In this document: piece by piece, positions 45,726-62,133 of the stretch
Layout: each line of letters starts with the position of its first letter
How positions within the stretch are numbered: position 1 is the stretch's first letter
Assembly (NCBI GenBank): GCA_035291085.1
Contig: DATDTA010000145.1
Span: 193 to 64,192 of the forward strand
Direction of reading: 5' to 3'
Source: Candidatus Nanoarchaeia archaeon
GTDB taxonomy: Archaea; Nanobdellota; Nanobdellia; Woesearchaeales; GW2011-AR9
Length of the DNA stretch: 64,000 nt
Translations under genes and position numbers: made by a program
The notes under the pieces: model-generated
What the model saw: the letters and a program-made list of their open reading frames with translations, nothing else
The model's database searches: none
What the model was told of the DNA's origin: nothing

Positions 45726-46458
45726 AGATTATGTAAGACTGTAAAGGACTCAACACGCTTCTTTGAATTTTGAATTTATCCAATCCAAAAACTTCTTTTA
45801 AAGCAATAGTTTCTCCTGGACATTCCTTATAATTTAATTCATCGAAACCAATTATAGACCCTTTAGTTAGATGTCCTTTAATTAATTTTAAACACTCCTT
45901 AGTGGGCTGATAAATGTCCATGTCAAAATAAACTAAAGAAATAATAGTGTGAGGATTTTCTTGTAAATATTTTTTAAGAGTAATACTCGCATCTCCTTTT
46001 ATAATTTCAAATTTTTTAATATGAGGAATGGGGCTTTCTGATTCATGAAAATCTAAAATCTGTTTTAAATATTCTTCATATCCATGAGTAACCGAATAAT
46101 CACCGGTTTTCATTTGATGATCATTCTCGCTTACCATAGGAAAGCCTTCAAAAGTGTCAAACCCTACAATTTTTCGATTGTAATTGAATGGCTCTAACAT
46201 ACCTCTAAAATTAGAAAATAAGGCTAGGTTATGCCCCCATCTAACTCCTAATTCTATTACTATTCCGTGAGTTTCCAAAGATTTCTGATAAAGCTCATAC
46301 ATAAATAAAATTCTGGACATAGTTCTTCGATTAATGAATAACCCCAAATTGCCTAATAATTCCTGTTCCGGAATGGGTGTATTTTTAAATAACTGGAAGA
46401 ATTTTTCTCTATTAATCCTCTCTTGATTAGAGGTTCTTTCAATAGTATTAAAGTCCAT
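45718..46458 (-). CDS. TylF/MycF-family (macrocin O-methyltransferase-like) class I SAM methyltransferase.
   Basis: GIVIELGVRWGHNL (ExGxxxG), FDTFEGFP, YFDMDIYQPT (metal-binding DxDxY). Confidence 0.7.
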   Translation of the reverse strand: MDFNTIERTSNQERINREKFFQLFKNTPIPEQELLGNLGLFINRRTMSRILFMYELYQKSLETHGIVIELGVRWGHNLALFSNFRGMLEPFNYNRKIVGFDTFEGFPMVSENDHQMKTGDYSVTHGYEEYLKQILDFHESESPIPHIKKFEIIKGDASITLKKYLQENPHTIISLVYFDMDIYQPTKECLKLIKGHLTKGSIIGFDELNYKECPGETIALKEVFGLDKFKIQRSVLSPLQSYIIYE

Positions 46459-46496
46459 TTTACCATTAAATTTTAGCTAGAATCTGTTTAAAAATG

Positions 46497-46516
46497 TTTT
46501 GGTCTACTGTTCTTTT
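46497..46516. promoter_or_regulatory. 17-nt motif TGGTCTACTGTTCTTTT about 40 nt upstream of TylF-like methyltransferase 1. A second copy lies at 48331-48350 upstream of TylF-like methyltransferase 2.
   Basis: Identical 17-mer read in both locations. Both copies lie 5' of paralogous minus-strand methyltransferase genes. Confidence 0.45.
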
Positions 46517-46519
46517 ACA

Positions 46520-46747
46520 CTAAAAAAGCCAGCCTTGGCATGAATGGATGGTCCTGGCTTTTTGGTGCCTAAAGATGTGTTTTAATCCGGCATCTAAACA
46601 GACTTTATTCTCAAACCAGCTTATATCAAATCCATTTACAATCAACCTTCCAGCAAAAAGAGATACTGACTGGCCATATTGTTCGCTATTAAATTTCTCC
46701 CAAAGAGAGTGATAAATTTCACTGAGCTTTGCCTCGCTTTCTTTCAT
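46520..46747 (-). CDS. Small hypothetical ORF 6 nt downstream of the dioxygenase gene.
   Basis: 75-aa ORF on the same strand, tightly spaced. No motif recognised. It overlaps a hairpin-like sequence at 46530-46560. Confidence 0.25.
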   Translation of the reverse strand: MKESEAKLSEIYHSLWEKFNSEQYGQSVSLFAGRLIVNGFDISWFENKVCLDAGLKHIFRHQKARTIHSCQGWLF

Positions 46748-46752
46748 AGAGA

Positions 46753-47487
46753 TTAATTTTTTTTATCAACAAGAATTGAAATTTCGATGCTGACTCTAGT
46801 TCTATCATTAGTTCCAACAACCCCGGCATGCAGGAGCTTATCATGGAAGATAATAATATCTCCTGGGTTTGTGGGGATAACTGTTGCTTTATCAGAAACA
46901 TCTTTTACTGTTGTAGCTTTCCCATATTCTCCAATAGTAAATTCATACTCTTGTTTTTGAGAATGAGGAACAACCATTAATCCAGCTTTTCCCGGCTCGC
47001 AGTAAACGGCTATCCAGGCTTTTAACATTTGCTTGCCTTTAGGCAGACTATATTTGGAACGCTGCCAGAACCAATAATCTGCATGCATGAGGGCAGCATC
47101 ACTTTTTTCAAATGGTCTAACTAAACGCCAATAAATATCTTCTCTTCCTAAATGCCCATTAACCGGACATAAGTCTGTTGCAGAAAATTCTCCTAATACT
47201 TTGCTTAATACCGAAAAGATAGAAAATTTTTTGATTGCATCCACCTGCTCTTTAGAAAAAATTCTAACTGGTTTTGGCCAGGCTTCACTATGATTAATCA
47301 TGTGCGCACTTTTATGATATTCTTCAATAGGACAGTTTAGGAATAAAGAGTAATTATCTTGATATTTGTTCTTAAGATTATCATGATAACTTTTGTTAAT
47401 AAAATTACGGATAGTTGCCAGTTCAGATGTGGATAATTTTAAGTTGGTAATAAAACCGGTTCCTTCATTAAGTTCATTCATAACCAT
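46753..47487 (-). CDS. PhyH-like Fe(II)/2-oxoglutarate-dependent dioxygenase.
   Basis: LMHADYWF (HxD facial triad) and a distal FHDKLLHAG (second His). 244 aa. Confidence 0.6.
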   Translation of the reverse strand: MVMNELNEGTGFITNLKLSTSELATIRNFINKSYHDNLKNKYQDNYSLFLNCPIEEYHKSAHMINHSEAWPKPVRIFSKEQVDAIKKFSIFSVLSKVLGEFSATDLCPVNGHLGREDIYWRLVRPFEKSDAALMHADYWFWQRSKYSLPKGKQMLKAWIAVYCEPGKAGLMVVPHSQKQEYEFTIGEYGKATTVKDVSDKATVIPTNPGDIIIFHDKLLHAGVVGTNDRTRVSIEISILVDKKN

Positions 47488-47500
47488 CTAAACCACCGTT

Positions 47501-48199
47501 TTAAGCTTTGTAATTTTGGATTATAAATCTTCTGCAATTAAAGCCATACATTCCGGCATCTTCAGACTTAATAGAAAATTTCTTTACCGCTTCCAGCCAG
47601 GCGCGTCTTTCTCCGTTCTCATTATCATTGGCGGAAGCATTAAACTCATCAAAGCAAATCATTGCTCCTTGACTAATCATGCTTTTAGAAAATATATAAT
47701 TTAAAACCTCTTCAGTAGATTCATAAAGATCACAGTCAACATGGACTAAAGCAAATTTCTGGTTTTCTGGAAGCTGGGGAAGAGTTTCATTGAACCATCC
47801 CGGATAAATTTTGAGATTATTAATATATTTTTCACATTTTTTTCTGACAGATTCTGGATTGCCTTTGAAATCACCTTTTTTCCATTTGCCCTGGGCTACT
47901 TCTTTCATTCCTGAAGCTATACTCTTTATTTCAGGAAGCCCTTGGAAACTGTCAAATAATAATAAAGCCTTATTATTTTTCTTTATTCTGGATAAAGCAT
48001 AGCTGATATAAGAAGCGCTGAACCCATTCGAAACTCCAAATTCAGCAATATCCCCATCAACTAAGGAATAACTCACGTAATTTACTGCGCTGATAAGACC
48101 TTGCTCACGCTGTAAGGCAGTTTCATTCCAGCTTAGCCTTTGCAAGTTTCTAAGAATATTTCTCTTTAATAATTTAAAATGCCTAATATATTTCTCCAT
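47501..48199 (-). CDS. Second TylF/MycF-family SAM methyltransferase, paralog of 45718..46458.
   Basis: GDIAEFGVSNGFS, FDSFQGLP, HVDCDLYEST. Confidence 0.7.
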   Translation of the reverse strand: MEKYIRHFKLLKRNILRNLQRLSWNETALQREQGLISAVNYVSYSLVDGDIAEFGVSNGFSASYISYALSRIKKNNKALLLFDSFQGLPEIKSIASGMKEVAQGKWKKGDFKGNPESVRKKCEKYINNLKIYPGWFNETLPQLPENQKFALVHVDCDLYESTEEVLNYIFSKSMISQGAMICFDEFNASANDNENGERRAWLEAVKKFSIKSEDAGMYGFNCRRFIIQNYKA

Positions 48200-48243
48200 C
48201 TCTCTAAAAAACAGTAATGTTTTTATAAAGATATCTGTTCTTA

Positions 48244-48331
48244 GATAAAGTCAACTAAACAATCATATCAATCACCTCTCCGACAAACAAAGAAGAACCA
48301 ATATATAGAATTATGTTTAGTTGACTTTATC
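48244..48331. repeat. Perfect 18-bp inverted repeat GATAAAGTCAACTAAACA ... TGTTTAGTTGACTTTATC around a 52-nt spacer. It abuts the second copy of the TGGTCTACTGTTCTTTT motif.
   Basis: Read directly. Arms at 48244-48261 and 48314-48331. It lies in the divergent region between 47501..48199 (-) and 48415..49038 (+). Confidence 0.75.
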
Positions 48332-48414
48332 TGGTCTACTGTTCTTTTTTCAAGACCATTTTCAAGAGCCTTATTGCGTAATCTTTATATTCCCAAAATA
48401 AGCAGTCTTAAGAT

Positions 48415-49038
48415 ATGAGCAACCAAACCAACAGTTATTTGGTCGGCTATAACTGCGGAATTAGTATTGAGATAGAAAGCTTTCCTATCTCTCAGCGCAG
48501 CCTGCGTTATCAGCAACAAGAAAACCCTTCCCTCAGTTTGGGAGACCAAGTCATTTATGCTGTAGCTCAAGTGCTACCTAAATTCCCGGAGTTCAACAGC
48601 TATTTCTCGGGGGAAGTAACAAAATACCCTTCTATTAATATCGCGTACTCAATCAATCTTGGAAAAGGACCAAAAAAAGTAGTGCTCAAAAACGCCGATA
48701 AGCTCTCCTTAGTAGAAGTTTCCTACGCCGTAAAGGCCTTCGCCTTTAAGTATATGCGGGAAAATCTGACTGAAGCTGACACAGAGGGAGCAACGACCTC
48801 CATCCTTAATCTTTCTTTTTTCAATCCCTACAGCGTGGTCACTCCTCTTTTCGCCGACCAAGCCGCCCTCCTTACCATAGCTTCTGAACGGGAGATTGTA
48901 AAAATAGTGCAAGAAAAGGCAGTGGCACAGAAAGTTTTCAATCTTTGCCTAGCCTATGACGTACGGGTTGCTGACTGCCAGAGGGCTTTGCAATTTCTCA
49001 ATGCCATAAAAGATATATTAGAAAAAAAAGAAGCGTAG
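48415..49038 (+). CDS. CAT/E2-fold (2-oxoacid dehydrogenase acyltransferase catalytic-domain-like) protein with an atypical active-site block.
   Basis: C-terminal LCLAYDVRVADCQRALQFLNAIKDILE aligns with the E2 motif SFDHRVIDGAxAARFL, but has Val in place of the catalytic His. 207 aa. Confidence 0.4.
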   Translation: MSNQTNSYLVGYNCGISIEIESFPISQRSLRYQQQENPSLSLGDQVIYAVAQVLPKFPEFNSYFSGEVTKYPSINIAYSINLGKGPKKVVLKNADKLSLVEVSYAVKAFAFKYMRENLTEADTEGATTSILNLSFFNPYSVVTPLFADQAALLTIASEREIVKIVQEKAVAQKVFNLCLAYDVRVADCQRALQFLNAIKDILEKKEA

Positions 49039-49070
49039 AATTTAAGTTCCAGCCATTTAAGCGGATTCAC

Positions 49071-50918
49071 TCAAGCCTTTTTACTTAATTTTTCCTGGTA
49101 ATACTGCTGCAGCATTCTATATAGCACTTTTTTGGTCGGCCCTTTAGGAATATCTGGCAAATCCGGCAGATTATTAATAATAATTATTTCCTTAGGCTGC
49201 TTATACCCGGCTATTTTATCTGAAAGGAAATGACGTAAATCCTCTTCCCGCACCGAGAGCCATCCTTTGTCTTCCTTAAGCTTGACAAAAGCACAAACTT
49301 CCTGTCCCAGTAGCTTACTGGGTATGCCGAACACCGCACATTCTGCTACGGCAGGATGCTTAAAGAGAACATTTTCAACTTCACTGGGATAAATGTTTTC
49401 TCCACCTTTGATGATCAGGAAATCTTTCCTGGTTTTGAAATAGATGTATCCGTCTGCATCCATATAACCGTAATCCCCACTATGAAACCAGCCGTTCCTA
49501 AAAGTTTGATAGTTTTTTTCCGGAAGCATGAAATATTCATTTGCAACATTCAAACCACGTATACAGATTTCACCCTCTTGGCCCAAGGGCAATTCATTAC
49601 CATCATCATTGCGGATGCTGATTTTATTAACAGGAAGAGCCTTGCCCACGGTTCCTACTTTTCGTTTTTCCGCAGGGAAATCATTGAAGCAGGCAAAGGA
49701 AGTAGTTTCCGTCAAACCGTAACCCTCAAACACCGGGATCTTAAAGCGGGATTCAAATTGGTTTTGCATCTCTCTGGTTAAGGGCTGCCCTCCGCAGATT
49801 ATACCTTGCATAGATTGGTCAGTGCGCTCCAGCGGCAGGCTCAACAAAATGGAAAGAATGGAAGGCATGACGCTGATCCAGTTGATGTGATATTGTTCAA
49901 TGAGACGCCAAAACGTCATCAAGCTGGTTTTACCCTGCACCATCACGGTTGAACCGCCGGCATAGAGAGGGCTTAGCAAGGTTACAACCTGCCCATTATT
50001 ATGAAAGAGTGGAAGCAGGCCTAAAGTCCTGGTTGAGGACGAAAACAGGAACCATTCAGAAAGCGCTTTGGCATCAGCCAGCAAATTGAGATGAGTAAGC
50101 ACCACGCCCTTAGGATTTCCCGTCGTTCCAGAGGTATAGATTATGACTGCTTTATCAGTTGGACTAACTTCAGGTGTTTGAAACAAATGCGCAATCGTTT
50201 GCGCAGATGAGTCGGAAAAATATTCTGAAGAAAAAAATTTTTCTGTTGAATAAAAAGTAGCGAGGGGGGCAGCGACAGCCCCTATTTTCGATTCTACAAT
50301 AGGATCAAAGAGAACCATTTTTGTTTGCGAATTAGTAATAATAAATTCCATCTCTGGAGGTGAAAGATCGGGGTTGATGGGCACGACCACTACTCCCAGC
50401 GCCAGCGCGGCAAAATAAAGTGATACGAAAGAAGAGGAAGTAGGGATGATTAAACAGAGGCGATGGCCGGGCTGTAGGCCATGTTCACCCTGAAGCTGAG
50501 CGGCAACCAATTTAATTTTATAGTCAAAATCCTGATAAGTAAAGGACTCATCTTTATCCGGAAAGAAAATAAAATCCTTTGCCAAAAAAAGTTCTTTTTT
50601 GGCTAAGAACAGTTCATAGACATTCTGGTATTCGATAGCAAATGGTTTTTCCAGACGCTGGTGCGGCAGCAGCATTTCTGAATTGATGGGCAATCCTTTT
50701 CTATTCTGAAGGTATTTACGAAGAATTGCTAGAATTGCTGGAACACCGGTCATGCGCAAAGTATCTTTATATTCCAATCTAATGCCAAACTCTTTTTCCA
50801 GCGCCGCTAAGAGCTGAATATGCTTCAGGGAATCCCAGCGCGGAGTATTGGCCATAGTCAAATCAATACTATAACTGCCCATTATTTTCTCAAACACTTC
50901 ACGAAGTTTTTGTTCCAT
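49071..50918 (-). CDS. Fusion: N-terminal ACP domain joined to an acyl-AMP/acyl-CoA ligase (adenylate-forming enzyme).
   Basis: N-terminal PRWDSLKHIQLLAALE (DSL phosphopantetheine site). AMP-binding motif IYTSGTTGNPKGVVLTH and C-terminal GWFHSGDYGYMDADGYIYFKTRKDFLIIKGGENIYP. Confidence 0.8.
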   Translation of the reverse strand: MEQKLREVFEKIMGSYSIDLTMANTPRWDSLKHIQLLAALEKEFGIRLEYKDTLRMTGVPAILAILRKYLQNRKGLPINSEMLLPHQRLEKPFAIEYQNVYELFLAKKELFLAKDFIFFPDKDESFTYQDFDYKIKLVAAQLQGEHGLQPGHRLCLIIPTSSSFVSLYFAALALGVVVVPINPDLSPPEMEFIITNSQTKMVLFDPIVESKIGAVAAPLATFYSTEKFFSSEYFSDSSAQTIAHLFQTPEVSPTDKAVIIYTSGTTGNPKGVVLTHLNLLADAKALSEWFLFSSSTRTLGLLPLFHNNGQVVTLLSPLYAGGSTVMVQGKTSLMTFWRLIEQYHINWISVMPSILSILLSLPLERTDQSMQGIICGGQPLTREMQNQFESRFKIPVFEGYGLTETTSFACFNDFPAEKRKVGTVGKALPVNKISIRNDDGNELPLGQEGEICIRGLNVANEYFMLPEKNYQTFRNGWFHSGDYGYMDADGYIYFKTRKDFLIIKGGENIYPSEVENVLFKHPAVAECAVFGIPSKLLGQEVCAFVKLKEDKGWLSVREEDLRHFLSDKIAGYKQPKEIIIINNLPDLPDIPKGPTKKVLYRMLQQYYQEKLSKKA

Positions 50919-50927
50919 TAGTCTTTC

Positions 50928-51869
50928 CTATTTTACTGAATCTTTGAAATGATCAATGATGTTTTCTGCCGCCCGCCTAGCCATCATCGAACGGCATTCC
51001 TTAGTTGCCGTTCCGATATGCGGAATAATCAAACAATTATCTTTTTTACAGAGCGGATGGCTGGCCGGAAGCGGCTCGGGATCAGTCACGTCGAGGCATG
51101 CTCCCCGAATGAATCCCTTTTGCAATGCCTCGACTAAATCGTCAGTATGGACCACCCCGCCACGGGCCATGTTGATCAAAACTGGCTTCTTCTGCATCTG
51201 CAGGAACTCTTTTTTGCCGATAAAATGTTTTGTTTCCTTGGTCAATGGGAGGTGCAGGGAAATATAATCTGCATTATTGAGGAGAAAAGGCAGTTCTACC
51301 TGCTGAATCGCGACCGGGATTGGTTCATCTGCCGGAGGTGTCGACCGGTTATAGTAAATGACCTGAAGACCAAAACCTAATGCTCTTTTGGCTACAGCTC
51401 TTCCAATTTTACCAAAACCGATGATACCCAGCGTTTTTCCGGAAAGTTCTTCACCGAGAAAAAGTTCAGGATCCCATGATTTCCATTTATCCTGATAAAT
51501 AAAATCACGGGCCGAGTGAATTTTCCTGGTCCAGGCTAAAAGTAAAGCCAAAGTCAGATCCGCAGTACTCTCGGTTACCACATTCGGAGTATTATATATA
51601 GAGATTCCTTTACTTTGCGCTGCAGCCAGATCAATATTATCTAAACCCACAGCGTAATTAGAAATTACCTGTACAGAACTATTATTAAGAATATCCGCGG
51701 TCATTTTTTCCGATACGGTCGTTAAAATTCCATCGTAGTTGGAAGTGATTTCTTTTAACTTTACTAGCGGTAACGGAGCATTTTCTTCAGAAGAGTCAAC
51801 CTGAAAATGTTTACCCAAAAGTTCTTTGGCTATCGGAGGCAAGCGCCTGGTTATAAAAATTCGCTTCAT
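50928..51869 (-). CDS. D-isomer-specific 2-hydroxyacid dehydrogenase (glyoxylate/hydroxypyruvate reductase-like).
   Basis: GKTLGIIGFGKIGRAVAKRA (NAD-binding), catalytic His region IIPHIGTAT. Confidence 0.8.
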   Translation of the reverse strand: MKRIFITRRLPPIAKELLGKHFQVDSSEENAPLPLVKLKEITSNYDGILTTVSEKMTADILNNSSVQVISNYAVGLDNIDLAAAQSKGISIYNTPNVVTESTADLTLALLLAWTRKIHSARDFIYQDKWKSWDPELFLGEELSGKTLGIIGFGKIGRAVAKRALGFGLQVIYYNRSTPPADEPIPVAIQQVELPFLLNNADYISLHLPLTKETKHFIGKKEFLQMQKKPVLINMARGGVVHTDDLVEALQKGFIRGACLDVTDPEPLPASHPLCKKDNCLIIPHIGTATKECRSMMARRAAENIIDHFKDSVK

Positions 51870-51872
51870 GTT

Positions 51873-53132
51873 TTATGATGGTACTTTTGTCGTACTCCTC
51901 CGCAAAAATTCACCTACTTTCTTCATTGCTTCATCAATTTTATCTAAATCATGAACTAGAGGGCCAAACGAAATTCTGACTGCTTCTTGCTGAGATCTTC
52001 CAAAACCCCAACCTGGAACAAAGAGCACACCAGTTGCTTTCAATACTTCCTCGACAAAGACAGCACTATCGCGACCTACTTTCATACAAGTATAAAGACC
52101 GCCCTGGGGCACAAAACAAGGCAAGCCGATATGTTCATGAATCGCTTGTACTGTTTTCTCTGCCGCTTTCTTATAAAGAGCATTTACATCTTTAAGATAC
52201 GTATGTAGACTTCCGTCAGCGATAGCTTTTTCGAGATACGTGGTTAAAGCCATTTGATGTAAAGTATCTGGACAAAGAATCGCTGATGATTGCACCGATT
52301 CAAATACGGAAATCACTTCTTCACTTGCTTCGATCCAACCCAGGCGCCTGCCTAAACCACGGCACCATTTAGAATTCGAATGCAGCGAGAGGTAATTATC
52401 GCTTGGGGGCCAGGAAAAATATTCTGGAAGCTGATCTTCGAAAACGAGGTCTTTGTAAGCAAAATCAATCACCAAGAAACCACTTGTCTCTTCCAGCGCT
52501 TGACGAGCCGCTTGGACAAAAGCATGCGGTAGTACCTGAGAAGTCGGGTTGTCTGGAGCTACCAACAACACTACTTTCGGTTTTTCCTTTCGGATGAATT
52601 GGGCAAATTCTTGAATTTTCTTCTCGGGAATATATTCCCATTTTTCTTCATCAACCACAGGAAAACGAATTATGTCTACGTCCAAAGCAGTTGTAATCTG
52701 CGTCGGGAAATTACAATAAGCTGGATCAAGCAGCAGGATTTTGTCATGCGGATCAAGCAATACCTGGAAAATATCAAAGGTCATCTGGGTAGAATTTGCG
52801 CCAATAGCGATCTGTTCGGGATGAAGTCCCCGCAGGTTGTAGATATGTTGTTCATATTTCACTAATGCTTCTTTACAAGCTAGCATCCCCAAAGTGGGTG
52901 AATACCCGCCAGACTGGTGCAATTTTTCCTCATCATTAATTATTTCCGCATAGGCTTGCTGCATTAATTTAGGAGTTTTATGGTTAACCCATCCCCCAGC
53001 AAAGGAAATCACTTCTTTCGATTCGAAACCTAACTTCTTAAAATAGGCAGGGTTGGCATAGCTCATGATCTGCCGCACCGGAGAGATCTGCCGTCTAAAC
53101 ATTACCGCTTTTTTTGAAAGTTCTGGTCTCAT
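51873..53132 (-). CDS. Class I/II PLP-dependent aminotransferase.
   Basis: LSLHSNSKWCRGLGRRLGW (SxSK PLP-lysine motif), about 420 aa. Confidence 0.75.
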   Translation of the reverse strand: MRPELSKKAVMFRRQISPVRQIMSYANPAYFKKLGFESKEVISFAGGWVNHKTPKLMQQAYAEIINDEEKLHQSGGYSPTLGMLACKEALVKYEQHIYNLRGLHPEQIAIGANSTQMTFDIFQVLLDPHDKILLLDPAYCNFPTQITTALDVDIIRFPVVDEEKWEYIPEKKIQEFAQFIRKEKPKVVLLVAPDNPTSQVLPHAFVQAARQALEETSGFLVIDFAYKDLVFEDQLPEYFSWPPSDNYLSLHSNSKWCRGLGRRLGWIEASEEVISVFESVQSSAILCPDTLHQMALTTYLEKAIADGSLHTYLKDVNALYKKAAEKTVQAIHEHIGLPCFVPQGGLYTCMKVGRDSAVFVEEVLKATGVLFVPGWGFGRSQQEAVRISFGPLVHDLDKIDEAMKKVGEFLRRSTTKVPS

Positions 53133-53156
53133 TATTTCATTTCACCTCTAACATTA

Positions 53157-53891
53157 TCACGTCATCCCGCCATCAACATTTATCACTTGTCCATTCACAT
53201 AGCTGGCCAAATCACTAGCCAGAAAAAGAGCAACCCGAGCTATCTCTTGTGGCTGGCCAATCCTTTTTAGGATGGTTTGATTCAGCAAACGTTCCCGCTG
53301 TTCAATCGTAAGGTAACTAATCATTTCTGTTTCTGTCAATCCTGGAGCTATAGCATTGACAGTAATGCCAATCGGCCCTAGCTCTTTTGCTGCAGTCTTG
53401 GTAAAACCAATTATCCCTGCCTTGCTAGAGCTATAAGCAGCTTGCCCGGGGTTGCCGAATAAACCCATCACTGAAGTGATATTGATTATCTTCCCCCCGC
53501 TAAGGAGCATTATCTTAGCTGCTTCTTTAGTGCAGAGAAAAGTTCCTTTAAGATTTGTGCCTAATATCGCTTCCCACTCCGCTTCCTCAGTCTTGAGAAT
53601 TAAATTATCCTTCAAAATGCCGGCGTTATTGATCAATACATCCAGTCGACCAAAAATTTTTTTGACTTCAGAAAACAAATGCTGCACCTGATCTGCTTTG
53701 CTGATATCTGCCTGAATAGCGATAGCGGTTGGGCAAATAGTTTTTATTTCTTGCAGGGTTTGCTGCAAAGAATCCTCGCTATGGAGATAGTTTATGATCA
53801 CTGTTGCTCCTTGTTGTGCGAAAAGAATAGCGATGGCCTTCCCGATCCCTTTGCTGGCACCAGTAATCAAAACAACTTTATTCTGAAGCAT
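53157..53891 (-). CDS. Short-chain dehydrogenase, 3-oxoacyl-ACP reductase (FabG)-like.
   Basis: VVLITGASKGIGKAIA (TGxxxGxG), NNAGI, YSSSKAG (YxxxK). Confidence 0.85.
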   Translation of the reverse strand: MLQNKVVLITGASKGIGKAIAILFAQQGATVIINYLHSEDSLQQTLQEIKTICPTAIAIQADISKADQVQHLFSEVKKIFGRLDVLINNAGILKDNLILKTEEAEWEAILGTNLKGTFLCTKEAAKIMLLSGGKIINITSVMGLFGNPGQAAYSSSKAGIIGFTKTAAKELGPIGITVNAIAPGLTETEMISYLTIEQRERLLNQTILKRIGQPQEIARVALFLASDLASYVNGQVINVDGGMT

Positions 53892-53895
53892 ATCC

Positions 53896-54291
53896 TTAAT
53901 CTCTCCGCTTTATCTGAATTTTTTCTTTCTCTTGAATGATAACAAAAGCTACTGCTTTATCTTCACAATGCGACAGGCTGATTTTGCTTTGTAAACCAGC
54001 GTACTTTTGATGATGGATTCTTATTGAAGGAACGCCATCTTGAAGATGATAAATCTCAATTTGTGTAAATGGGACGGCTTTTTTTCCCAAACCGTAAAGA
54101 GCTTTGATGATTGCTTCCTTAGCTGCAAATCGCACAGCTAGATGTGGAGCAGGATTTTTCTTTGAAAGACAGTATGCTAATTCATCAGCAGTATAGATCT
54201 TACTAAAAAAGAGACTATCTTCGGATTGCTTCAATCCGCGAAAGCGACTGATACTCTCTATATCCACGCCTATGCCGCAAGTCCAGTTCAT
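53896..54291 (-). CDS. AcpS-type 4'-phosphopantetheinyl transferase (holo-ACP synthase).
   Basis: GIGVDIESISRF, 131 aa, C-terminal SLSHCEDKAVAFVI. Confidence 0.75.
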   Translation of the reverse strand: MNWTCGIGVDIESISRFRGLKQSEDSLFFSKIYTADELAYCLSKKNPAPHLAVRFAAKEAIIKALYGLGKKAVPFTQIEIYHLQDGVPSIRIHHQKYAGLQSKISLSHCEDKAVAFVIIQEKEKIQIKRRD

Positions 54292-54330: not shown

Positions 54331-54837
54331 TTATGTTCTTTCTAAAAAAGATTTCCGATCAAGAGCATAATGAAAAATCCGTGAATCGCTACCATCAATC
54401 CTCAAAAAATGAAAACCAAAACTCTCAAAAAGCTTCTTAGATATTTCATTGTGCTGCATGATTCGTGCGGTAATGGTATGTACATTCTCTTGAGAGAGAT
54501 ATTCTTCAAAAGCAAGACTTAAGGATTTCTTCCCATACCCTTGCTGCCGAAAATCTGGATTGAGATTGATGCTCACCTCCGCTTCCTCATCACGACGATC
54601 GAAGCGGATCATTCCGACCTTCTGCTGTTCGAGATTGACAATTAAATACAGCCGAGTAGACGGTTTCTGCAGTACATTTAAATACCACTTTTCATGAATT
54701 TCCAGAGCAACTTCTCCAGTAGGAGAGAAAGCTATGCTTACGGGATCATTTCGCCAACGTAGGATATCCCAACAGTCATCCATTGTAGCAAGACGAAGCG
54801 AGATATTAATACTCCTTAAATTCTGGTAGTGGCCCAT
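54331..54837 (-). CDS. GNAT-family N-acetyltransferase.
   Basis: 168 aa. RQQGYGKKSL (acetyl-CoA binding Q/RxxGxG/A block). Confidence 0.65.
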   Translation of the reverse strand: MGHYQNLRSINISLRLATMDDCWDILRWRNDPVSIAFSPTGEVALEIHEKWYLNVLQKPSTRLYLIVNLEQQKVGMIRFDRRDEEAEVSINLNPDFRQQGYGKKSLSLAFEEYLSQENVHTITARIMQHNEISKKLFESFGFHFLRIDGSDSRIFHYALDRKSFLERT

Positions 54838-55492
54838 ATTTTTCTTCTAATTGCTTTTTTCCCATTGCGATTTTCTGAGGATCAGCGGTAAAAGAGCGCG
54901 GATGTCTTTTATATAAATACAAGGGTTTAGGAACATGCACTCCTTTATATTTAGTGAGGATGCGAAACAGCAAGTCGTATTCTGGAAACATAAAACGCTG
55001 GTCCCAGAAGCCAATTTCTTCGAGAATTTTCTTCCGAAAAAGAATTCCTGCTGCAAGTGTATTCAAGATGTTTTTGCAGCTTATTTCTTTTCTTGCGTTA
55101 GTGCGCAAGTCAATTTCATGATAATCACTGTAGGCAAACGCATATTCACGGCGGTTGCTATAATCTTCATATGGGGCCCCAGATTGAAGACCACTATAAA
55201 GCTCTGAGAGCATATTTGGACTGCATTCATCATCACCATCGAGAAAAACCACATATTCCCCTCTCGCTAAGCGTAGCCCTTCATAACCAGCTTTGATCAT
55301 GCCTTGGTTCTGTTGATGTAATACACGTAATCTGGGGTGATGAAAGGAATCGATGAGGTCACGAGTTTCTTTTTCACTCCCGTCGTCAATAACGAGAATC
55401 TCAAAGTCAGCAAAATCCTGCCGCAAAGCGCTCCGAATTGCTTTGTCAACTAGATTGAGATCGTTATGGGTGCGAATAATTAAGGAAATCAT
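54806..55492 (-). CDS. GT2-family glycosyltransferase.
   Basis: ISLIIRTHNDLNLVDKAIRS, VIDDGSEKET, FLDGDD (DxD). Confidence 0.7.
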   Translation of the reverse strand: MISLIIRTHNDLNLVDKAIRSALRQDFADFEILVIDDGSEKETRDLIDSFHHPRLRVLHQQNQGMIKAGYEGLRLARGEYVVFLDGDDECSPNMLSELYSGLQSGAPYEDYSNRREYAFAYSDYHEIDLRTNARKEISCKNILNTLAAGILFRKKILEEIGFWDQRFMFPEYDLLFRILTKYKGVHVPKPLYLYKRHPRSFTADPQKIAMGKKQLEEKYGPLPEFKEY

Positions 55493-55540: not shown

Positions 55541-58510
55541 TTACTCATTCCACCAGTCCTCCTTCGTTAGCACAGTATAAGGAAAAAGATCGCAGGAGGC
55601 TTTCTTACCCATAATTTCCCAGTAATGCTTGGGATCAAGGGCAGATTCTACTTGTCTGTTGCCAGGACGTAATACGGAAATATTTTCGGGATTGAAGACT
55701 TCACCTTTCTTAATCGGTTTGACTACAAATATTTTTCGTCGCACAAACTTCATCATGCTACGCTGCTCTTCCGTTAATGTTATCTCCCCGTCGCCAAGCC
55801 AAGCTTGATCAATATATATGTGCTTACCTTCTTGAAGCTGTTTCTCAGTTTCACGTACAACTTGCACCATCTGTTTAAGCTCTGCTGGCTCCAGGGACAT
55901 TTTATGGTCGATCCCTTCCATAGCCCTGGAAAGAGTAAAATGTTTTTCGATGATTTTTGCTCCAAGCGCGACTGCAGCTGAGGGGACACCCATATAGTCC
56001 ATGGTGTGGTCAGAGTACCCAACCACTACTTCAGGGAAAAAAGTCGATATTGTTTTTAAGGCCTTCAGATTTGCAGAAGAAGGAGGAGCAGGATATTTAG
56101 CGACGCAATGTAAGATCGAGAGGGATTTATTACCTGTTGAAGCAACCGTTGCGACCGCTTCTTGTACTTCTTTGAGTTGCGCTCCACCGATAGAAAAAAT
56201 CAGAGGCTTGCCAGTAAAAGCAGCTTTTTTCAACAGCGGCAGATGTGTAGTTTCAGAACTGGCTATTTTAAACATTCCAACATGCCGGTCAAGAATATCT
56301 ACCCCTTTTTCATCAAAGACACTAGCAAAAAGAATTAGGCCTTTACTTTGTGCGTACGCAGCTAAGTCAGGAATCCACCACCCCGGAAATTCAGTTTTCT
56401 TCCAGACTTGATAGATATCTACTTCCTCACCCCATTCATTACGAAAGTGGCCCGCATCTGGAACATAAAGTCCTTCTGCCGTAAGCCATTGAAATTTCAC
56501 TGCATCAACACCAGCAGCAGCAGCAACATCGATTAATTTTTTAGCGAGGTTAAAATCACCGTTGTGATTGACACCTGCTTCAGCTATGATGAAACAAGGC
56601 TGATTACTACCAATTATTCTTGTCCCGACTTTGAAAGACACTTTCGGTTTCTCTTCTGTTATTGATGCATATTCAGAATCTTGGAGTATTCTGTATTTCA
56701 CTTCTGCAATTTTCCAATCTTCTTCAGTGTCGATATCCTGGACTTCCAGATCACTTAAGATTACTGCACCGGAATTAGTTGTCCAGAGCAGCTTGTGTCT
56801 CTTGAAACTTTCAGTTTTCATCCAGTAGAATTGTCCACTGTCATGATAAGCTGGCATCAGGTCTTGTGAGCGTTTAGTCAAGTTCTCTGGGTTAATCATG
56901 CTTAGCTTCTCCCCCTCAATTTTAAGAGCCCGTTGGATAGGGTAAGTGTAACGACGTACGGGACATACTGAATCGTAATTCTTTTCGATCATTAAAGAAA
57001 AACATTCTTGCATCTTTTCAACTGAAACAAAAGGTGCAGTCGGAAGCAGACAACAGAAATAATCAAACGTTTTTCCCTGGAGTTCATATCGCTCTAGGAC
57101 TTCCCCCATCACTTCGGCAAGATGAGCAAAATCATTTGCTGTTTTTTCAGATCTCAGAAAAGGCACTTTCGCTCCGGCCCGGATAGCAATTTCAGCAATT
57201 TCTTTATCGTCTGTCGATACCATCACTTCGTCAAATAGTCCCGACTTAATTGCACACTCTATAGAATAAGTGATGATCGGCTTTCCCAAAAAATGCTTTA
57301 TGTTTTTTCGAGGAATTCTCTTGCTTCCCCCCCGCGCAGGAATGATCGCAATTCTACTTTTTCTTGTAGACATAAAAAATTGTTGTATATTAACTATAAC
57401 CCGGTTTTGTTCTTGTTCCATCAAACTAGGATAGATCGGTAAACTGATAATTTTTTCGTAAAATTGTTCAGCGTTAGGACAAAGTCGAGGCTTATACCCT
57501 TTCTGGCGATAATAAGGCTGTAAATAAATAGGCAGATAATGCACCTGGCATAAAATATCTCGTTCTTTCAAATACTCAAATAGAGTACGCCGTATTTTTC
57601 CATTCTTAACTTTAAGAATAAATAAATGATAGGAATTAACCAGGTCGTTTTGTTCTTCTACCATTTCCAATTCTGGATTTTTTTTGAAAGCTTCCCCGTA
57701 CTTGTTCGCCAATTCTCTCCTTTTCTCAATAAAAGAATCTATCTTCGTAAGTTGGCTCATCCCTAAAGCACATTGAAAATCAGTCATGCGATAGTTATAT
57801 CCTAACTCCTGCATCTCTTGATGCCATGGCCCTTCGTCTTTATACCAAAACAGTTCAGGATTTTTCGTTATTCCGTGGGTGCGCAATTTCAATAACTTCT
57901 CATACAGATCTTTGGAGTTAGTCGTAATCATTCCACCTTCACCGGTAGTAATATGTTTCACGGGATGAAAACTGAAGCAACTCATCTGGGAATATGTACA
58001 GTCGCCTATTTTGCTCTCCTTGTACCTTGCACCCAGAGCATGACAAGCATCTTCGATAACGACCAAGTTATGCTTTGATGCAATCTTTTGGATTGCTTCT
58101 AAATCACAGGGCAATCCGCCATAATGAACAGGAAGGATTATTTTTGTCGCAGCAGTTATCTTTTTTTCAACTTCTGCTGGATCAATCAAACCTTGCTCAG
58201 TAATATCCGCAAACACCGGAGTAGCGCCACAATAGAGGGTGCAATTGGCAGAGGCGACAAAACTGAGCGGTGAAGTAATCAATTCTTCTCCCGGCTTCAA
58301 ACCGGCAGCCAGACAAGCTAGATGAAGAGCTGCAGTTCCGCTAGAAACTGCTACGGCATATTTCGCTCCAACATAATTTGCAAACTTTTCTTCAAACTCT
58401 TTTATTTTCGGCCCCGTAGTTAAGAAATCATCTTGAAGGGCTTTCTGTACCGCTGCAAGATCATCTTCTTGGATTGATTGTTTCCCATAAGGAATTTTCT
58501 CTGAAACCAC
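55541..58510 (-). CDS. Triple fusion for nonulosonic-acid biosynthesis: DegT/PseC/LegC-like aminotransferase (aa 1 to about 380), then a CMP-nonulosonate cytidylyltransferase (NeuA/LegF/PseF-like, about 383-620), then a nonulosonate synthase (NeuB/LegI/PseI-like with C-terminal SAF domain, about 640-989).
   Basis: N-terminal KYAVAVSSGTAALHLA and SFHPVKHITTGEGGMITT (DegT). Middle SRIAIIPARGGSKRIPRKN (CMP-NeuAc synthetase P-loop-like). C-terminal PCFIIAEAGVNHNGDFNLAKKLIDVAAAAGVDAVKFQ (NeuB TIM barrel) and a terminal SAF-like region (IFVVKPIKKGEVF). Confidence 0.85.
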   Translation of the reverse strand: MVSEKIPYGKQSIQEDDLAAVQKALQDDFLTTGPKIKEFEEKFANYVGAKYAVAVSSGTAALHLACLAAGLKPGEELITSPLSFVASANCTLYCGATPVFADITEQGLIDPAEVEKKITAATKIILPVHYGGLPCDLEAIQKIASKHNLVVIEDACHALGARYKESKIGDCTYSQMSCFSFHPVKHITTGEGGMITTNSKDLYEKLLKLRTHGITKNPELFWYKDEGPWHQEMQELGYNYRMTDFQCALGMSQLTKIDSFIEKRRELANKYGEAFKKNPELEMVEEQNDLVNSYHLFILKVKNGKIRRTLFEYLKERDILCQVHYLPIYLQPYYRQKGYKPRLCPNAEQFYEKIISLPIYPSLMEQEQNRVIVNIQQFFMSTRKSRIAIIPARGGSKRIPRKNIKHFLGKPIITYSIECAIKSGLFDEVMVSTDDKEIAEIAIRAGAKVPFLRSEKTANDFAHLAEVMGEVLERYELQGKTFDYFCCLLPTAPFVSVEKMQECFSLMIEKNYDSVCPVRRYTYPIQRALKIEGEKLSMINPENLTKRSQDLMPAYHDSGQFYWMKTESFKRHKLLWTTNSGAVILSDLEVQDIDTEEDWKIAEVKYRILQDSEYASITEEKPKVSFKVGTRIIGSNQPCFIIAEAGVNHNGDFNLAKKLIDVAAAAGVDAVKFQWLTAEGLYVPDAGHFRNEWGEEVDIYQVWKKTEFPGWWIPDLAAYAQSKGLILFASVFDEKGVDILDRHVGMFKIASSETTHLPLLKKAAFTGKPLIFSIGGAQLKEVQEAVATVASTGNKSLSILHCVAKYPAPPSSANLKALKTISTFFPEVVVGYSDHTMDYMGVPSAAVALGAKIIEKHFTLSRAMEGIDHKMSLEPAELKQMVQVVRETEKQLQEGKHIYIDQAWLGDGEITLTEEQRSMMKFVRRKIFVVKPIKKGEVFNPENISVLRPGNRQVESALDPKHYWEIMGKKASCDLFPYTVLTKEDWWNE

Positions 58511-60843: not shown

Positions 60844-62133
60844 TCACCACCAATTTCTCAGTAAATAGCTCTCCACAAATTCTAAAGCTTGGACATTCCT
60901 TTTTCCCTTTCCGCCAGTCTGCAATTTTAAAGAATAAGTAAAACGATTAAATATCTCTAACTGCCTCTTTAGATCATCAATATTTTCCGCTGGCCTTCTT
61001 TCCTTAAGCACTTCCGGCGTATTGTACAAGAAAATAGTCAAAGTCGGTTTAGGAAGGAACCATAATAAAAATCGTTTAAATCCAAAAGTAACATTTTTCA
61101 TTAACATAATATCGGAGCCATAACGATCCGTTATAACGATTCTTTTCTGCATCCGAGCTGGAAAAACCCGAGCATAATAGCGAAGTAATTGATCAAACAG
61201 AAATACTGGCGCCGAGGCAGTGTATAATAATTTCTTAGAAAATAACGATTTTGCAGCTGCCGCCGGTGATGGTGAAAGAGCCATTCTTTTCTTTTCCGTA
61301 CGTTTATACATCCGGCCTATCCGGGTGATTGGCAAAAGATGATTCCTTCCTCGCCCCGTATAGACAACCTTAACCCGCCTCCATTTTGCTTCCAGATGTT
61401 CCCGAAGAGAAGAGACTAAAGTTGACTTTCCTGCTCCATCCGGGCCAAGAACGCTAATCAAAGGAGCCGGAGTGAAAAATCTTTTCCATCTCAACCAGCG
61501 CCCACATAAAGCTAAAAATGTGGTGATATGGCGTAGCTTCTTCACCACAAAATATGCCGCGAGGGAATAAGTTGGAATTTTTTCAAATTTCTGTTGCTCC
61601 ACTAAATCAAGAATAGTAGCTGCTTTTCTTCTGTTAAAAATGCGTGAAAGAGCAGCAAGAACCTCGTTTCTATCGTACTTCATAGAAGAAATAATACGCT
61701 GATACTTCTGTTTAAAATAGCGCTTTCCTAAAATGGAATGAACTATGTACATAACAAAAACATCATTTTCCGCTAAGACAAAAAAGAACTCTTTAGCAGT
61801 TTTATTTTTCAAAATACTCTCATCAAGATAGCGCATATCATTCCAATACACACCGCCAACCTGAACATCGAAACTAACCAGTTTTAAATCTACTAATTTA
61901 AAATATGCCTTATGTGCTAATGAAAATTGCTGTTTTCGTTTCATAAAACCAAAATTATGTAACACTTCTCCAACACGAACCAGATCCTGTTTTGAAACAA
62001 CTATATCTAAACCTTCAATTGGAAAAGAATTATCGTAGAGAAACTCATAATTACGTAACAAACAATATTGAATACCTCGAGCATTAAATTCCGTTAGAAC
62101 TTTTTTATACCAATCAACTTGTATATTTGGCAT
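60844..62133 (-). CDS. Two-domain protein: N-terminal nucleotidyltransferase-like region joined to a C-terminal P-loop kinase/NTPase domain.
   Basis: Walker A VLGPDGAGKSTLVSSL (thymidylate-kinase/APS-kinase-like) in the C-terminal half. The N-terminal 200 aa are unassigned (GLDIVV block). Confidence 0.45.
   Translation of the reverse strand: MPNIQVDWYKKVLTEFNARGIQYCLLRNYEFLYDNSFPIEGLDIVVSKQDLVRVGEVLHNFGFMKRKQQFSLAHKAYFKLVDLKLVSFDVQVGGVYWNDMRYLDESILKNKTAKEFFFVLAENDVFVMYIVHSILGKRYFKQKYQRIISSMKYDRNEVLAALSRIFNRRKAATILDLVEQQKFEKIPTYSLAAYFVVKKLRHITTFLALCGRWLRWKRFFTPAPLISVLGPDGAGKSTLVSSLREHLEAKWRRVKVVYTGRGRNHLLPITRIGRMYKRTEKKRMALSPSPAAAAKSLFSKKLLYTASAPVFLFDQLLRYYARVFPARMQKRIVITDRYGSDIMLMKNVTFGFKRFLLWFLPKPTLTIFLYNTPEVLKERRPAENIDDLKRQLEIFNRFTYSLKLQTGGKGKRNVQALEFVESYLLRNWW

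Follow-up and report, generated by a model that had tools for sequence, protein, structure and literature searches.

Does the 64-kb stretch of archaeal DNA analyzed here (hereafter the window) encode three enzymes of nonulosonic acid biosynthesis on a single polypeptide, and if so, what would such a protein make and how did it arise? The earlier note on this DNA had placed an aminotransferase, a CMP-nonulosonate synthetase and a nonulosonate synthase with a SAF domain in one polypeptide, in that order, citing the motifs SRIAIIPARGGSKR and CFIIAEAGVNHNGD, both of which were found in the protein. We consider it highly likely that this is a genuine fusion, one 989-aa polypeptide carrying three predicted active enzymes of the biosynthesis of a CMP-5,7-diamino-3,5,7,9-tetradeoxy-nonulosonate, most probably a sugar of the pseudaminic acid type.

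Domains of the fused polypeptide

The minus strand at 55541..58510 contains one uninterrupted ORF with a GTG start and zero internal stops. Pfam analysis of the 989-aa product revealed, from the N- to the C-terminus, DegT_DnrJ_EryC1 (aa 12–375, E=1.7e-123), CTP_transf_3 (aa 387–529, E=9e-25), NeuB (aa 659–896, E=8e-75), and SAF (aa 927–982, E=1.7e-5), which is the predicted set and order. The coordinates of the three domains, designated C, F, and I, and of other relevant features are given in Table 1.

Domain C scored 507.5 bits against PseC (TIGR03588, UDP-4-amino-4,6-dideoxy-N-acetyl-beta-L-altrosamine transaminase; cutoff 423.5), with aa 6–378 covering model positions 2–379 of 380, whereas its LegC score of 258.9 bits was under the cutoff of 420. 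It retained all 31 columns with at least 95% conservation across 249 homologues, including K185, which is the PLP lysine, D154, and H157, and Foldseek aligned it with H. pylori PseC (2FN6, 2FNI, and 2FNU) at a TMt of 0.90–0.92. Domain F scored 295.3 bits against PseF (TIGR03584, pseudaminic acid cytidylyltransferase; cutoff 205.7), with aa 387–607 covering model positions 1–221 of 222, and kept 27 of 27 conserved columns, among them the nucleotide- and Mg-binding residues R393, K402, D592, and D594; the ancestral start methionine is also retained, as M381. Domain I carries a TIM barrel followed by SAF (PF03102 and PF08666), as expected of the NeuB superfamily, and its conserved columns were likewise complete (33/33, including E644, K672, K748, H835, H857, and R948), so that the metal histidines, PEP-binding lysines, and SAF arginine are kept.

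The AlphaFold model had a mean pLDDT of 91. Confidence was low at two places only, a loop in domain C and the F-I linker, the latter overlapping residues 611–619, the sole low-confidence segment between domains. The C-F junction was modeled as a tight turn leading from helix 364–381 to strand 385–390. Each domain superposed on solved homologues with a TMt of about 0.9, and the pTM was 0.57, so the model does not predict the relative arrangement of the domains. The F-I linker ends in a GTG codon (V624) at about the point where stand-alone synthases start. No SD-like signal precedes M381 or V624, where an SD-like 4-mer was looked for upstream of the GTG, although this is a weak test with only 17 of 50 genes here having one; internal starts yielding separate proteins were rejected on this basis. 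A promoter and terminator scan of 48.5–59.5 kb returned counts at chance level and was uninformative.

Table 1. Domains of the fused protein and other features of the window discussed in the text
Feature	Position in the window	Strand	Residues	Basis
Domain C, PLP-dependent sugar 4-aminotransferase, PseC type	57371..58510	-	aa 1-380	Pfam, NCBIfam, conserved residues, Foldseek
Domain F, CMP-nonulosonate synthetase (cytidylyltransferase), PseF type	56675..57370	-	aa 381-612	Pfam CTP_transf_3, NCBIfam PseF
F-I linker, ~12 aa, EYASITEEKPKV	56639..56674	-	aa 613-624	AlphaFold, gene overlap in relatives
Domain I, NeuB-family nonulosonate synthase (TIM barrel + SAF), SpsE-like clade	55541..56638, including stop codon	-	aa 625-989	Pfam, tree, PDB match
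Small soluble GT2, directly downstream of the fusion	54806..55492	-	228 aa	Pfam Glycos_transf_2
GNAT N-acetyltransferase, probable PseH-like step	54331..54837	-	168 aa	NCBIfam PseH best match, 52.2 bits (cutoff 93.1)
GT-B-like protein, candidate CMP-nonulosonate glycosyltransferase	39136..40812	+	558 aa	Weak NCBIfam matches: BFO_1060 family glycosyltransferase (45.1 bits), TIGR04396
Extended SDR, possible nucleotide-sugar 4,6-dehydratase, not PseB-type	29645..30568	-	307 aa	SSEVYG/YxxxK motif

Synthase clade and predicted product

By the curated cutoffs, domain I is neither PseI nor NeuB/LegI: it scored 278.9 bits against PseI (TIGR03586, pseudaminic acid synthase; cutoff 340.25) and 304.8 bits against NeuB_NnaB (TIGR03569, N-acetylneuraminate synthase; cutoff 399.65). 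Judged by sequence similarity, it belongs to a clade around B. subtilis SpsE; this clade is our informal grouping, and no curated model covers it. The best PDB match was SpsE (1VLI, 299 bits), ahead of PseI (157) and NeuB (146), and the sub-threshold pattern of NeuB above PseI was shared by the SpsE fragment (299/254.5) and the query. A neighbor-joining tree placed domain I within a clade of stand-alone synthases of about 365 aa and outside the clade formed by C. jejuni PseI and the PseI genes of loci L007 and L008. SpsE, the synthase in the sps pathway to legionaminic acid, is the closest solved and characterized relative of domain I (about 40–43% identity, TMt 0.91), although it is a stand-alone protein. 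It is genetically tied to, and required for, legionaminic acid (Leg) synthesis in B. subtilis (PMC7439481). Because domain I falls under both cutoffs and its closest characterized relative is linked to Leg, the stereochemistry of the product is uncertain.

The suggestion that the remaining pathway steps lie elsewhere in the window held only in part. The GNAT at 54331..54837 was closest to PseH among the NCBIfam models, although below the cutoff; it was matched by the GNAT half of an annotated Klebsiella PseG(/H) protein and scored 26.7 bits against the PDB PseH entry 4XPK, and its counterpart in locus L011 passed the PseH cutoff with 133.2 bits. The extended SDR encoded at 29645..30568 does have a dehydratase-like motif, in line with the earlier proposal, but it is not PseB: its 63.7 bits (cutoff 407.75) was the best PseB score in the 64-kb window, which thus lacks PseB, and reference PseB proteins aligned with it at 23–29% identity over the Rossmann part only. 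Its LegB score (169 bits) was also under the cutoff of 475. The SDR is 54% identical to one located two genes upstream of the L011 synthase, with a UDP-sugar dehydrogenase between them. For PseG, the 64-kb window gave no match to the PseG part of two annotated reference proteins, and the window ORFs, each compared with either Pfam or NCBIfam, yielded no PseG model and no PseG-type GT-B (Glyco_tran_28-like) domain. The B. subtilis sps operon includes a PseG-like SpsG and a PseB-like SpsM (PMC7439481), and genes of these types were not found in the window. The gene at 20264..21346, which had been read as a UDP-GlcNAc 2-epimerase/hydrolase, was rejected as a hydrolyzing enzyme, since its profile scores identified a non-hydrolyzing WecB (324 bits, cutoff 210) rather than NeuC (77.7 bits, cutoff 235.9); its neighbors are WbpB-like and DegT genes that belong to another pathway. 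The product of 39136..40812 has homologues of 31–33% identity in the nonulosonate loci L009, L011, L012, and L013, and the BFO_1060 family to which it weakly matches includes T. forsythia transferases of Pse/Leg derivatives (PMC5420450).

The SpsE-like synthase with its Leg-linked relative, the missing PseB, and the dehydratase-like SDR shared with L011 would all fit a different product, a legionaminic-type or other stereoisomeric 5,7-diamino-nonulosonate made via a retaining 4,6-dehydratase such as this SDR, comparable to the UDP-linked Leg route of B. subtilis (SpsM/C/D/G/E/F). We regard this alternative as unlikely while according it real weight, given that domain C exceeds the PseC cutoff and domain F the PseF cutoff, with LegC far below its own, and that domain C is 61–64% identical to aminotransferases adjoining true PseB genes. 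In L013 and L015, synthases coupled to the small GT2 also occur alongside true PseB, and L011 has an SpsE-like synthase adjoining the GNAT that passes the PseH cutoff.

From these features we infer the substrates and stereochemistry, the activity of each domain, and a reason for the fusion. In the preferred pseudaminic-type pathway, the PseC-type domain would transaminate a UDP-4-keto-6-deoxy-HexNAc using PLP on K185, and the product would be N-acylated by separate proteins, namely the GNAT and possibly a neighboring acyl-carrier system. Another separate protein, for which the adjoining small GT2 is a candidate, would remove the nucleotide. The SpsE-like domain would condense the free 2,4-diacetamido-2,4,6-trideoxy-hexose with PEP, with H835 and H857 as metal ligands, and the central PseF-type domain would activate the nonulosonate with CTP. 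The idea that the fusion could channel intermediates is plausible for hand-over from synthase to cytidylyltransferase, which catalyze consecutive steps, but it is not implied across all three domains because two steps performed by other proteins separate the aminotransferase from these two. The likely benefit would be expression in a fixed 1:1:1 ratio and genome compactness, with local hand-over confined to the synthase and cytidylyltransferase.

The GT2 at 54806..55492 has no hydrophobic segment and carries a DGDD motif. Its counterparts in L012 and L013, immediately downstream of the synthase, are 49–51% identical to it, and the one in L011, which lies one gene further from the synthase, after a GNAT, falls within the same range; those in L014 and L015 are 38–41% identical, and in protein P0138 the GT2 is fused to the synthase. 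In loci lacking PseG, a small GT2 always adjoins a synthase of this kind. The GT2 is the obligate neighbor of this synthase type and may be the enzyme behind the missing nucleotide-sugar hydrolase step. We tentatively propose, as a possibility less likely than not, that the fusion belongs to a previously undescribed variant of the nonulosonate pathway that dispenses with PseG and is widespread among CPR bacteria and DPANN archaea. Its NeuB-family synthase would always be coupled to a small, soluble protein of the GT-A fold; the GT2 would be the nucleotide-sugar hydrolase feeding the synthase, a non-orthologous replacement of PseG/LegG, and the product might differ in stereochemistry from both Pse and Leg. 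Synthases of this putative variant are SpsE-like in the window, L011, L012, and P0138, and of other non-PseI types elsewhere.

Integrity and origin of the fusion

The fusion could be real but recent and effectively neutral or decaying, with one domain non-functional and its function supplied elsewhere in the genome; the synthase part, for example, might be poorly translated or misfolded. The confinement of the fusion to one population and the distance to its closest known relative (61% identity) would be compatible with such decay, which we nevertheless consider very improbable. All 91 near-invariant positions of the three domains are kept, including the catalytic lysine, metal histidines, and nucleotide-binding residues, so that all three domains look catalytically intact. 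The AlphaFold model was of high confidence for every domain, GC and GC3 were uniform across domains C, F, and I, and the window has no other NeuB, PseF, or PseC-grade gene, the DegT gene at 16472..17563 being under the PseC cutoff.

The exact 989-aa protein was found on 14 contigs. Comparison of the gene on five contigs obtained by different groups, assemblers, and runs (ENA ERZ28563803, NCBI GCA_001820115.1, the k141-named ENA ERZ4903072, Logan SRR3989338, and Logan SRR2090155) revealed 0 mismatches over 2970 nt (100% identity), which rules out an assembly or frameshift artefact at the junctions, the concern that had been raised. The notion that an assembly or base-calling error (for instance, an indel deleting a stop codon) merged two or three adjacent genes is already close to refuted, even though every fusion-bearing contig comes from one aquifer population and a single indel would fuse the overlapping genes of the relatives described below: conserved residues stay in frame on either side of both junctions, many independent proteins have the same C-F junction, and the three-domain form recurs in a second lineage, on two contigs. 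The exact fusion is carried by one aquifer population only, all of whose contigs are identical.

The domain order C-F-I differs from the pathway order, as had been pointed out, because the fusion arose by loss of stop/start boundaries between neighboring, overlapping genes and so copies gene order rather than reaction order. Annotated operons run pseB-pseC-pseF-pseG/H-pseI, and C is upstream of I in almost every one of about 30 species-representative loci with both genes. The PseC-PseF two-domain fusions of CPR/DPANN metagenomes (P0002–P0007, named 'transaminase/pseudaminic acid cytidylyltransferase' by JGI) share 57–61% identity with aa 1–612 of the query and have the same junction. Their genes lie between pseB and a synthase gene, which, unlike in the query, is separate and overlapping and is 37–38% identical to domain I. 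In the nearest relatives (P0004, P0006, and P0007; 58–61% identity over the C-F part), the synthase gene overlaps the C-F fusion by 10–53 nt in another frame, and in L006–L008 this overlap between two genes in different frames takes the place of the F-I linker. Of the three nearest relatives examined, two (L007 and L008) have a synthase of the PseI type next to the C-F fusion, and that of the third is non-PseI and only 38% identical.

These patterns suggest that the C-F join is older and common to many CPR/DPANN relatives, and that the synthase would have joined later, from a clade other than that of the PseI genes located after the C-F fusion in L007 and L008. A recent horizontal gain of the synthase part was rejected, as GC and GC3 are indistinguishable between the domains; this uniformity indicates that the phylogenetic mismatch of the synthase part is old.

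Our database search for the same architecture showed it to be rare, though not confined to the query. Metagenomes commonly contain two-domain fusions, and these come in every order, whereas the three-domain form was seen in only two protein clusters, that of the query and the legionaminic-type P0042 (962 aa, LegC-cytidylyltransferase-NeuB/LegI; GCA_964344755.1). P0042 has the identical domain order and similarly short linkers, and both loci have a thymidylate-kinase-like gene and a GT4 nearby. Unlike the query, P0042 passes the LegC and NeuB_NnaB cutoffs (NeuB_NnaB 401.8) and has a PtmE-like nucleotidyltransferase and a LegG-like epimerase upstream. Its domains are only 31–37% identical to those of the query, which indicates an independent fusion; a single ancestral C-F-I fusion common to both was ruled out, each domain being far closer to unfused homologues (55–64%). 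No other three-domain protein was found among 1.84 billion representative proteins, a poor census in that neither the query cluster nor P0042 is a representative there. The best 80 loci of a genome-collection scan, made with patterns in domain C only, did not include the query genome and contained no fused ORFs. The fusion is a rare but unsurprising merger of neighboring genes and not a new kind of system.

Comparison with known systems

The three domains belong to the same families as the canonical CMP-Pse enzymes PseC, PseF, and PseI of Helicobacter pylori and Campylobacter jejuni, and the gene order C, F, I recurs in annotated operons of a Klebsiella plasmid (NZ_CP055164.1) and a Parabacteroides plasmid (NZ_OY725823.1); identity to the Klebsiella PseC, PseF, and PseI proteins was 44%, 46%, and 38%, respectively. 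Canonical operons encode separate proteins, with pseG/pseH between pseF and pseI, whereas the query is a single polypeptide that excludes G and H and has a synthase outside the PseI clade.

Precedents for pathway neighbors in one ORF include the PseG-PseH chimera (A. caviae FlmD), the Leptospira NeuB-phosphatase, and mammalian GNE (PMC7874193; PMC3438082), and PGAP names the chimera 'bifunctional ... hydrolase/GNAT'. E. coli K1 NeuA is a further precedent, according to the reference list of PMC6137143. These known fusions have two domains that mostly serve consecutive steps, whereas the query unites three enzymes, with the aminotransferase two steps away from the other two. In agreement with the view that the architecture was undescribed, our literature search found no paper describing a C-F-I fusion, and nothing on nonulosonic acids in CPR/DPANN.

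The fusion reveals no new enzymatic principle. It does provide a Rosetta-stone link between the SpsE-like synthase clade and PseC/PseF-type partners, and it highlights the conserved small GT2 as a possible enzyme for the missing hydrolase step. It also indicates that CPR/DPANN organisms, whose genomes are tiny, devote resources to sialic-acid-like surface sugars and have repeatedly compressed the pathway by gene fusion. Chemo-enzymatic production of CMP-activated pseudaminic-type sugars at present uses six separate enzymes (e.g., PMC7910423), and a natural three-in-one enzyme could simplify it. The 989-aa protein has already been deposited as a "hypothetical protein" of a 2016-era Rifle aquifer MAG.

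The three-domain protein

The ORF at 55541..58510 (-) opens with GTG and runs for 989 codons without an in-frame stop. Pfam recovered DegT_DnrJ_EryC1, CTP_transf_3, NeuB and SAF in the order predicted by the earlier note, and together with the NCBIfam matches this bore out its description of one uninterrupted aminotransferase, CMP-synthetase and synthase frame. The N-terminal domain (C, aa 1-380) scored above the PseC equivalog cutoff (507.5 vs. 423.5 bits) and the middle domain (F, aa 381-612) above the PseF cutoff (295.3 vs. 205.7 bits); the C-terminal domain (I, aa 625-989) scored below the equivalog cutoffs for NeuB_NnaB (304.8 vs. 399.65 bits) and PseI (278.9 vs. 340.25 bits).

The fusion was confirmed as genuine, and an artefactual ORF is very unlikely. 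An identical protein was already on record under the name "hypothetical protein A2822_04470", its source being a MAG of Candidatus Staskawiczbacteria, a lineage within the Parcubacteria/Patescibacteria group, and the exact 989-aa protein is encoded on 14 contigs. Five contigs from differing submitters, assemblers and sequencing runs were compared, and none differed from the window, either within the gene (2970 nt) or over the 2.5 kb that follow it. The three parts did not differ in GC or GC3, and their values are those usual in the window.

There is no sign of a dead domain in the fusion. When each domain was aligned with its homologues (C, n=249; F, n=26; I, n=133), the query kept every column conserved at 95% or more (31/31, 27/27 and 33/33, respectively). 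The alignments also showed retention of the PLP lysine K185 in the aminotransferase, R393, K402, D592 and D594 in the cytidylyltransferase, and E644, K672, K748, H835, H857 and the SAF arginine R948 in the synthase. The AlphaFold model (alignment depth 46 sequences) had a mean pLDDT of 91, with low confidence confined to aminotransferase surface loop 213-236 and F-I linker residues 611-619, and the C-F junction was modelled as a tight helix-to-strand turn. Every domain matched solved homologues in Foldseek (TMt ~0.9), and no solved chain among the matches covered more than one domain (TMq ~0.35).

Features of the 989-aa protein, the window and the compared loci (L-numbers)
Feature	Location	Position	Strand	Detail
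DegT_DnrJ_EryC1	protein	aa 12-375		E=1.7e-123
CTP_transf_3	protein	aa 387-529		E=9e-25
NeuB	protein	aa 659-896		E=8e-75
SAF	protein	aa 927-982		E=1.7e-5
Pyruvate-kinase barrel + PUA_2 + ATP-sulfurylase	window	984..3239	-
Cytidylyltransferase-like + PPDK_N + PEP-utilizer domain	window	6197..9115	-
Histidine phosphatase + methyltransferase	window	9215..10609	-
UDP-GlcNAc 3-dehydrogenase and adjacent second DegT aminotransferase	window	15501..17563	-	WbpB-like, 331 bits
ATP-grasp + extended SDR	window	18279..20276	-
2-Epimerase	window	20264..21346	-	non-hydrolysing WecB
UDP-ManNAc-dehydrogenase-like	window	28349..29629	+
SDR	window	29645..30568
GT-B-like protein	window	39136..40812	+	558 aa; weak BFO_1060 family and TIGR04396 matches
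Carbamoyltransferase + DUF4910/DUF2172 + winged helix	window	41028..44204	-
MaoC-Antibiotic_NAT fusion	window	44201..45424
Free ACP	window	45498..45725	-	75 aa
ACP-AMP-ligase fusion	window	49071..50918	-
D-2-hydroxyacid dehydrogenase	window	50928..51869	-
Class I/II aminotransferase	window	51873..53132	-	top match GntC-like
Ketoreductase	window	53157..53891	-
PPTase	window	53896..54291	-
GNAT	window	54331..54837		PseH-like
Small soluble GT2	window	54806..55492	-	228 aa, directly downstream of synthase gene
Thymidylate-kinase-like P-loop protein	window	60844..62133	-	429 aa
GT2 counterpart	L011	6488-7147
GT2 counterpart	L012	2408-3067
GT2 counterpart	L013	9001-9780
GT2 counterpart	L014	9001-9678
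GT2 counterpart	L015	9001-9666

Origin, rarity and domain order

Two-domain PseC-PseF proteins of ~610 aa are nearest to aa 1-612 (57-61% identity). Three of their loci read pseB, C-F fusion, separate synthase gene, the synthase gene running in a different frame and overlapping the stop of C-F by 10-53 nt. Annotated operons on Klebsiella and Parabacteroides plasmids read pseB-pseC-pseF-pseG(/H)-pseI. In 185,579 species-representative genomes, the best 80 loci had C upstream of I in nearly every case where both genes were present, and none carried a fused ORF. The mismatch between domain order and pathway order that had been pointed out is real, but since operons and relatives share the order C-F-I, the domains simply copy gene order, and the arrangement says nothing special about reaction order. 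M381 is the old pseF start, and the 12-residue F-I linker, EYASITEEKPKV, ends in a GTG codon at about the point where stand-alone synthases begin. The triple fusion is built from well-known families through merging of adjacent genes.

Classification of 384 retrieved homologues against the three query domains revealed 8 C-F, 10 F-C, 9 F-I, 4 C-I, 1 I-C and 2 C-F-I proteins; further architectures included PseB-PseC-PseF, PseC-PseF-GNAT and PseF-GNAT-NeuB. Pairwise fusions are common and the triple is rare: as far as the search reached, a collection of 5.8 billion clusters has it in two clusters (90% identity). It is not unique: a second homologue, P0042 (962 aa), has the same C-F-I order, but it is legionaminic-type whereas the query is PseC/PseF-type. 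P0042 exceeded the LegC and NeuB_NnaB cutoffs, and its locus encodes a PtmE-like nucleotidyltransferase, a LegG-like epimerase and a PglF/LegB-like SDR. Because its domains are each 31-37% identical to the query, farther than unfused homologues (up to 55-64%), the two triple fusions are independent.

Literature searches turned up no publication describing a C-F-I protein, in agreement with the earlier suggestion that the architecture is undescribed, and none on nonulosonic acids in organisms of the Candidate Phyla Radiation (CPR) or DPANN archaea. A PseG-PseH chimera is on record (PMC7874193), and PGAP uses a "bifunctional" name for this type of protein; Leptospira NeuB-phosphatase and mammalian GNE are further fusions in nonulosonate pathways (PMC3438082), and E. 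coli NeuA is another (cited in PMC6137143). The three-domain form is new, while fusions of these enzymes are already known as a kind. It is a candidate biocatalyst and may point to a variant of the pathway, so far undescribed, among CPR/DPANN organisms.

Nonulosonate synthesis proceeds from dehydratase to aminotransferase (C), N-acetyltransferase, nucleotide hydrolase, synthase (I) and cytidylyltransferase (F). Only I and F are consecutive; C acts two steps upstream. Since separate proteins perform the intervening steps, the channelling of intermediates that the earlier note raised as a possibility is not implied by the architecture for the polypeptide as a whole. The more economical reading is that the fusion would provide stoichiometric co-expression of C, F and I and compact the genome; many other genes in the window are fused. 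Enzymes of the PseC, NeuB and CMP-synthetase families are all known as homodimers, which makes a predicted dimeric assembly of the fusion plausible.

Remaining pathway steps and product type

Apart from overlapping shadow ORFs, every ORF of 110 aa or more was scanned with either Pfam or NCBIfam, and a few with both. The expectation that all remaining steps lie in the window did not hold in profile and reference-protein searches: PseB was absent from the 64 kb (top score 63.7 vs. cutoff 407.75), reference PseB proteins aligning to a Rossmann segment only, and comparison with reference PseG proteins revealed no homologue there. The gene assigned to the UDP-GlcNAc 2-epimerase/hydrolase step is a non-hydrolysing WecB (324 bits vs. 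cutoff 210); with the WbpB-like, second DegT and UDP-ManNAc-dehydrogenase-like genes it looks like part of a 2,3-diacetamido-uronic-acid route separate from the nonulosonate genes. The SDR has the dehydratase-type SSEVYG/YxxxK signature but is not PseB. L011 has a 54% identical SDR two genes ahead of its synthase gene, with a UDP-sugar dehydrogenase gene between them, and the SDR of the window may be a retaining 4,6-dehydratase. Of the two proposed N-acyltransferases, the one at 54331..54837 is a PseH-like GNAT that scored below the PseH cutoff. L009, L011, L012 and L013 each have a homologue of the GT-B-like protein (481-557 aa) next to nonulosonate genes. The BFO_1060 family includes the Tannerella Pse/Leg-derivative transferases (PMC5420450), and the GT-B-like protein is a reasonable candidate CMP-nonulosonate transferase.

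The closest solved relative of the synthase domain is B. subtilis SpsE (1VLI, 299 bits), against 157 bits for C. jejuni PseI and 146 bits for N. meningitidis NeuB, and SpsE falls below the same cutoffs with the same NeuB/PseI score pattern. The domain is 52-59% identical to ~365-aa stand-alone synthases of CPR/DPANN metagenomes and only 37-38% identical to the synthases following the C-F fusions in L006-L008, two of which (of three) are true PseI. In a neighbour-joining tree its clade is the sister of SpsE and distinct from the PseI and LegI/NeuB clades. Judging from scores and tree position, it is a third type beside PseI and NeuB/LegI. Genetic evidence shows that B. subtilis needs SpsE to make legionaminic acid by a UDP-linked route (PMC7439481), so the product might have legionaminic-type or other stereochemistry. 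A Pse-type product is nevertheless the probable one, because the PseC and PseF equivalog cutoffs were passed, the SpsE-like synthase of L011 adjoins a GNAT above the PseH cutoff, and true PseB genes accompany GT2-coupled synthases in L013 and L015.

The small GT2 and other neighbouring genes

A GT2 of 215-260 aa directly follows a NeuB-family synthase in all seven loci examined (the window, L011-L015 and the locus of homologue P0138), one gene further on after a GNAT in L011 and fused to the synthase in P0138. The reference-protein search revealed no PseG homologue in the five GT2 loci with DNA either, and neither a PseG-type GT-B nor a canonical ~380-aa NeuC/LegG epimerase is listed in any of the seven, that of P0138 being judged from its Pfam listing. 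The Leg-type locus L009 has a LegG-like epimerase and lacks the GT2. The top PDB match of the GT2 is 6P61, an uncharacterised 228-aa glycosyltransferase chain. In L013, PseG is the one Pse step that lacks an assigned gene, and the operon has just two genes with no assignment, the GT2 and an aldo-keto reductase. This raises the tentative, rather unlikely idea that the GT2, as a GT-A-fold protein, might stand in for the nucleotide-sugar hydrolase.

Some DPANN loci contain two NeuB-family synthases (L015 6076-9004, Woesearchaeota CP070803.1; the P0138 locus), the first adjoining or fused with a cytidylyltransferase and the second coupled to a GT2 and an acetyltransferase. In P0138 the second is SpsE-like; in L015 it shares 43% identity with the synthase of the query. 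Such loci might make two nonulosonate products, or the SpsE-like/GT2 pair might have a second role.

Thymidylate-kinase-like proteins also lie beside nonulosonate loci L009 (424 aa), L011 (458 aa) and L013 (446 aa), usually adjoining GT4 and CDP-alcohol phosphatidyltransferase genes; in tblastn, that of the window was 40% identical to L013 and gave a weak partial match to L011. In the window itself, downstream and in the same orientation, an acyl-carrier-based tailoring set (45498..54291 (-), from the PPTase to the free ACP), which also includes the MaoC-Antibiotic_NAT fusion, methyltransferases and a PhyH-like dioxygenase, suggests that the sugar may be an unusual one with N-acyl or O-linked modifications. 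Several other unusual multi-domain genes in the window (984..3239, 6197..9115, 9215..10609, 18279..20276 and 41028..44204) suggest that gene fusion is widespread in this genome. The fused protein with PPDK_N and PEP-utilizer domains is 55% identical to a gene in the Woesearchaeota locus L015.
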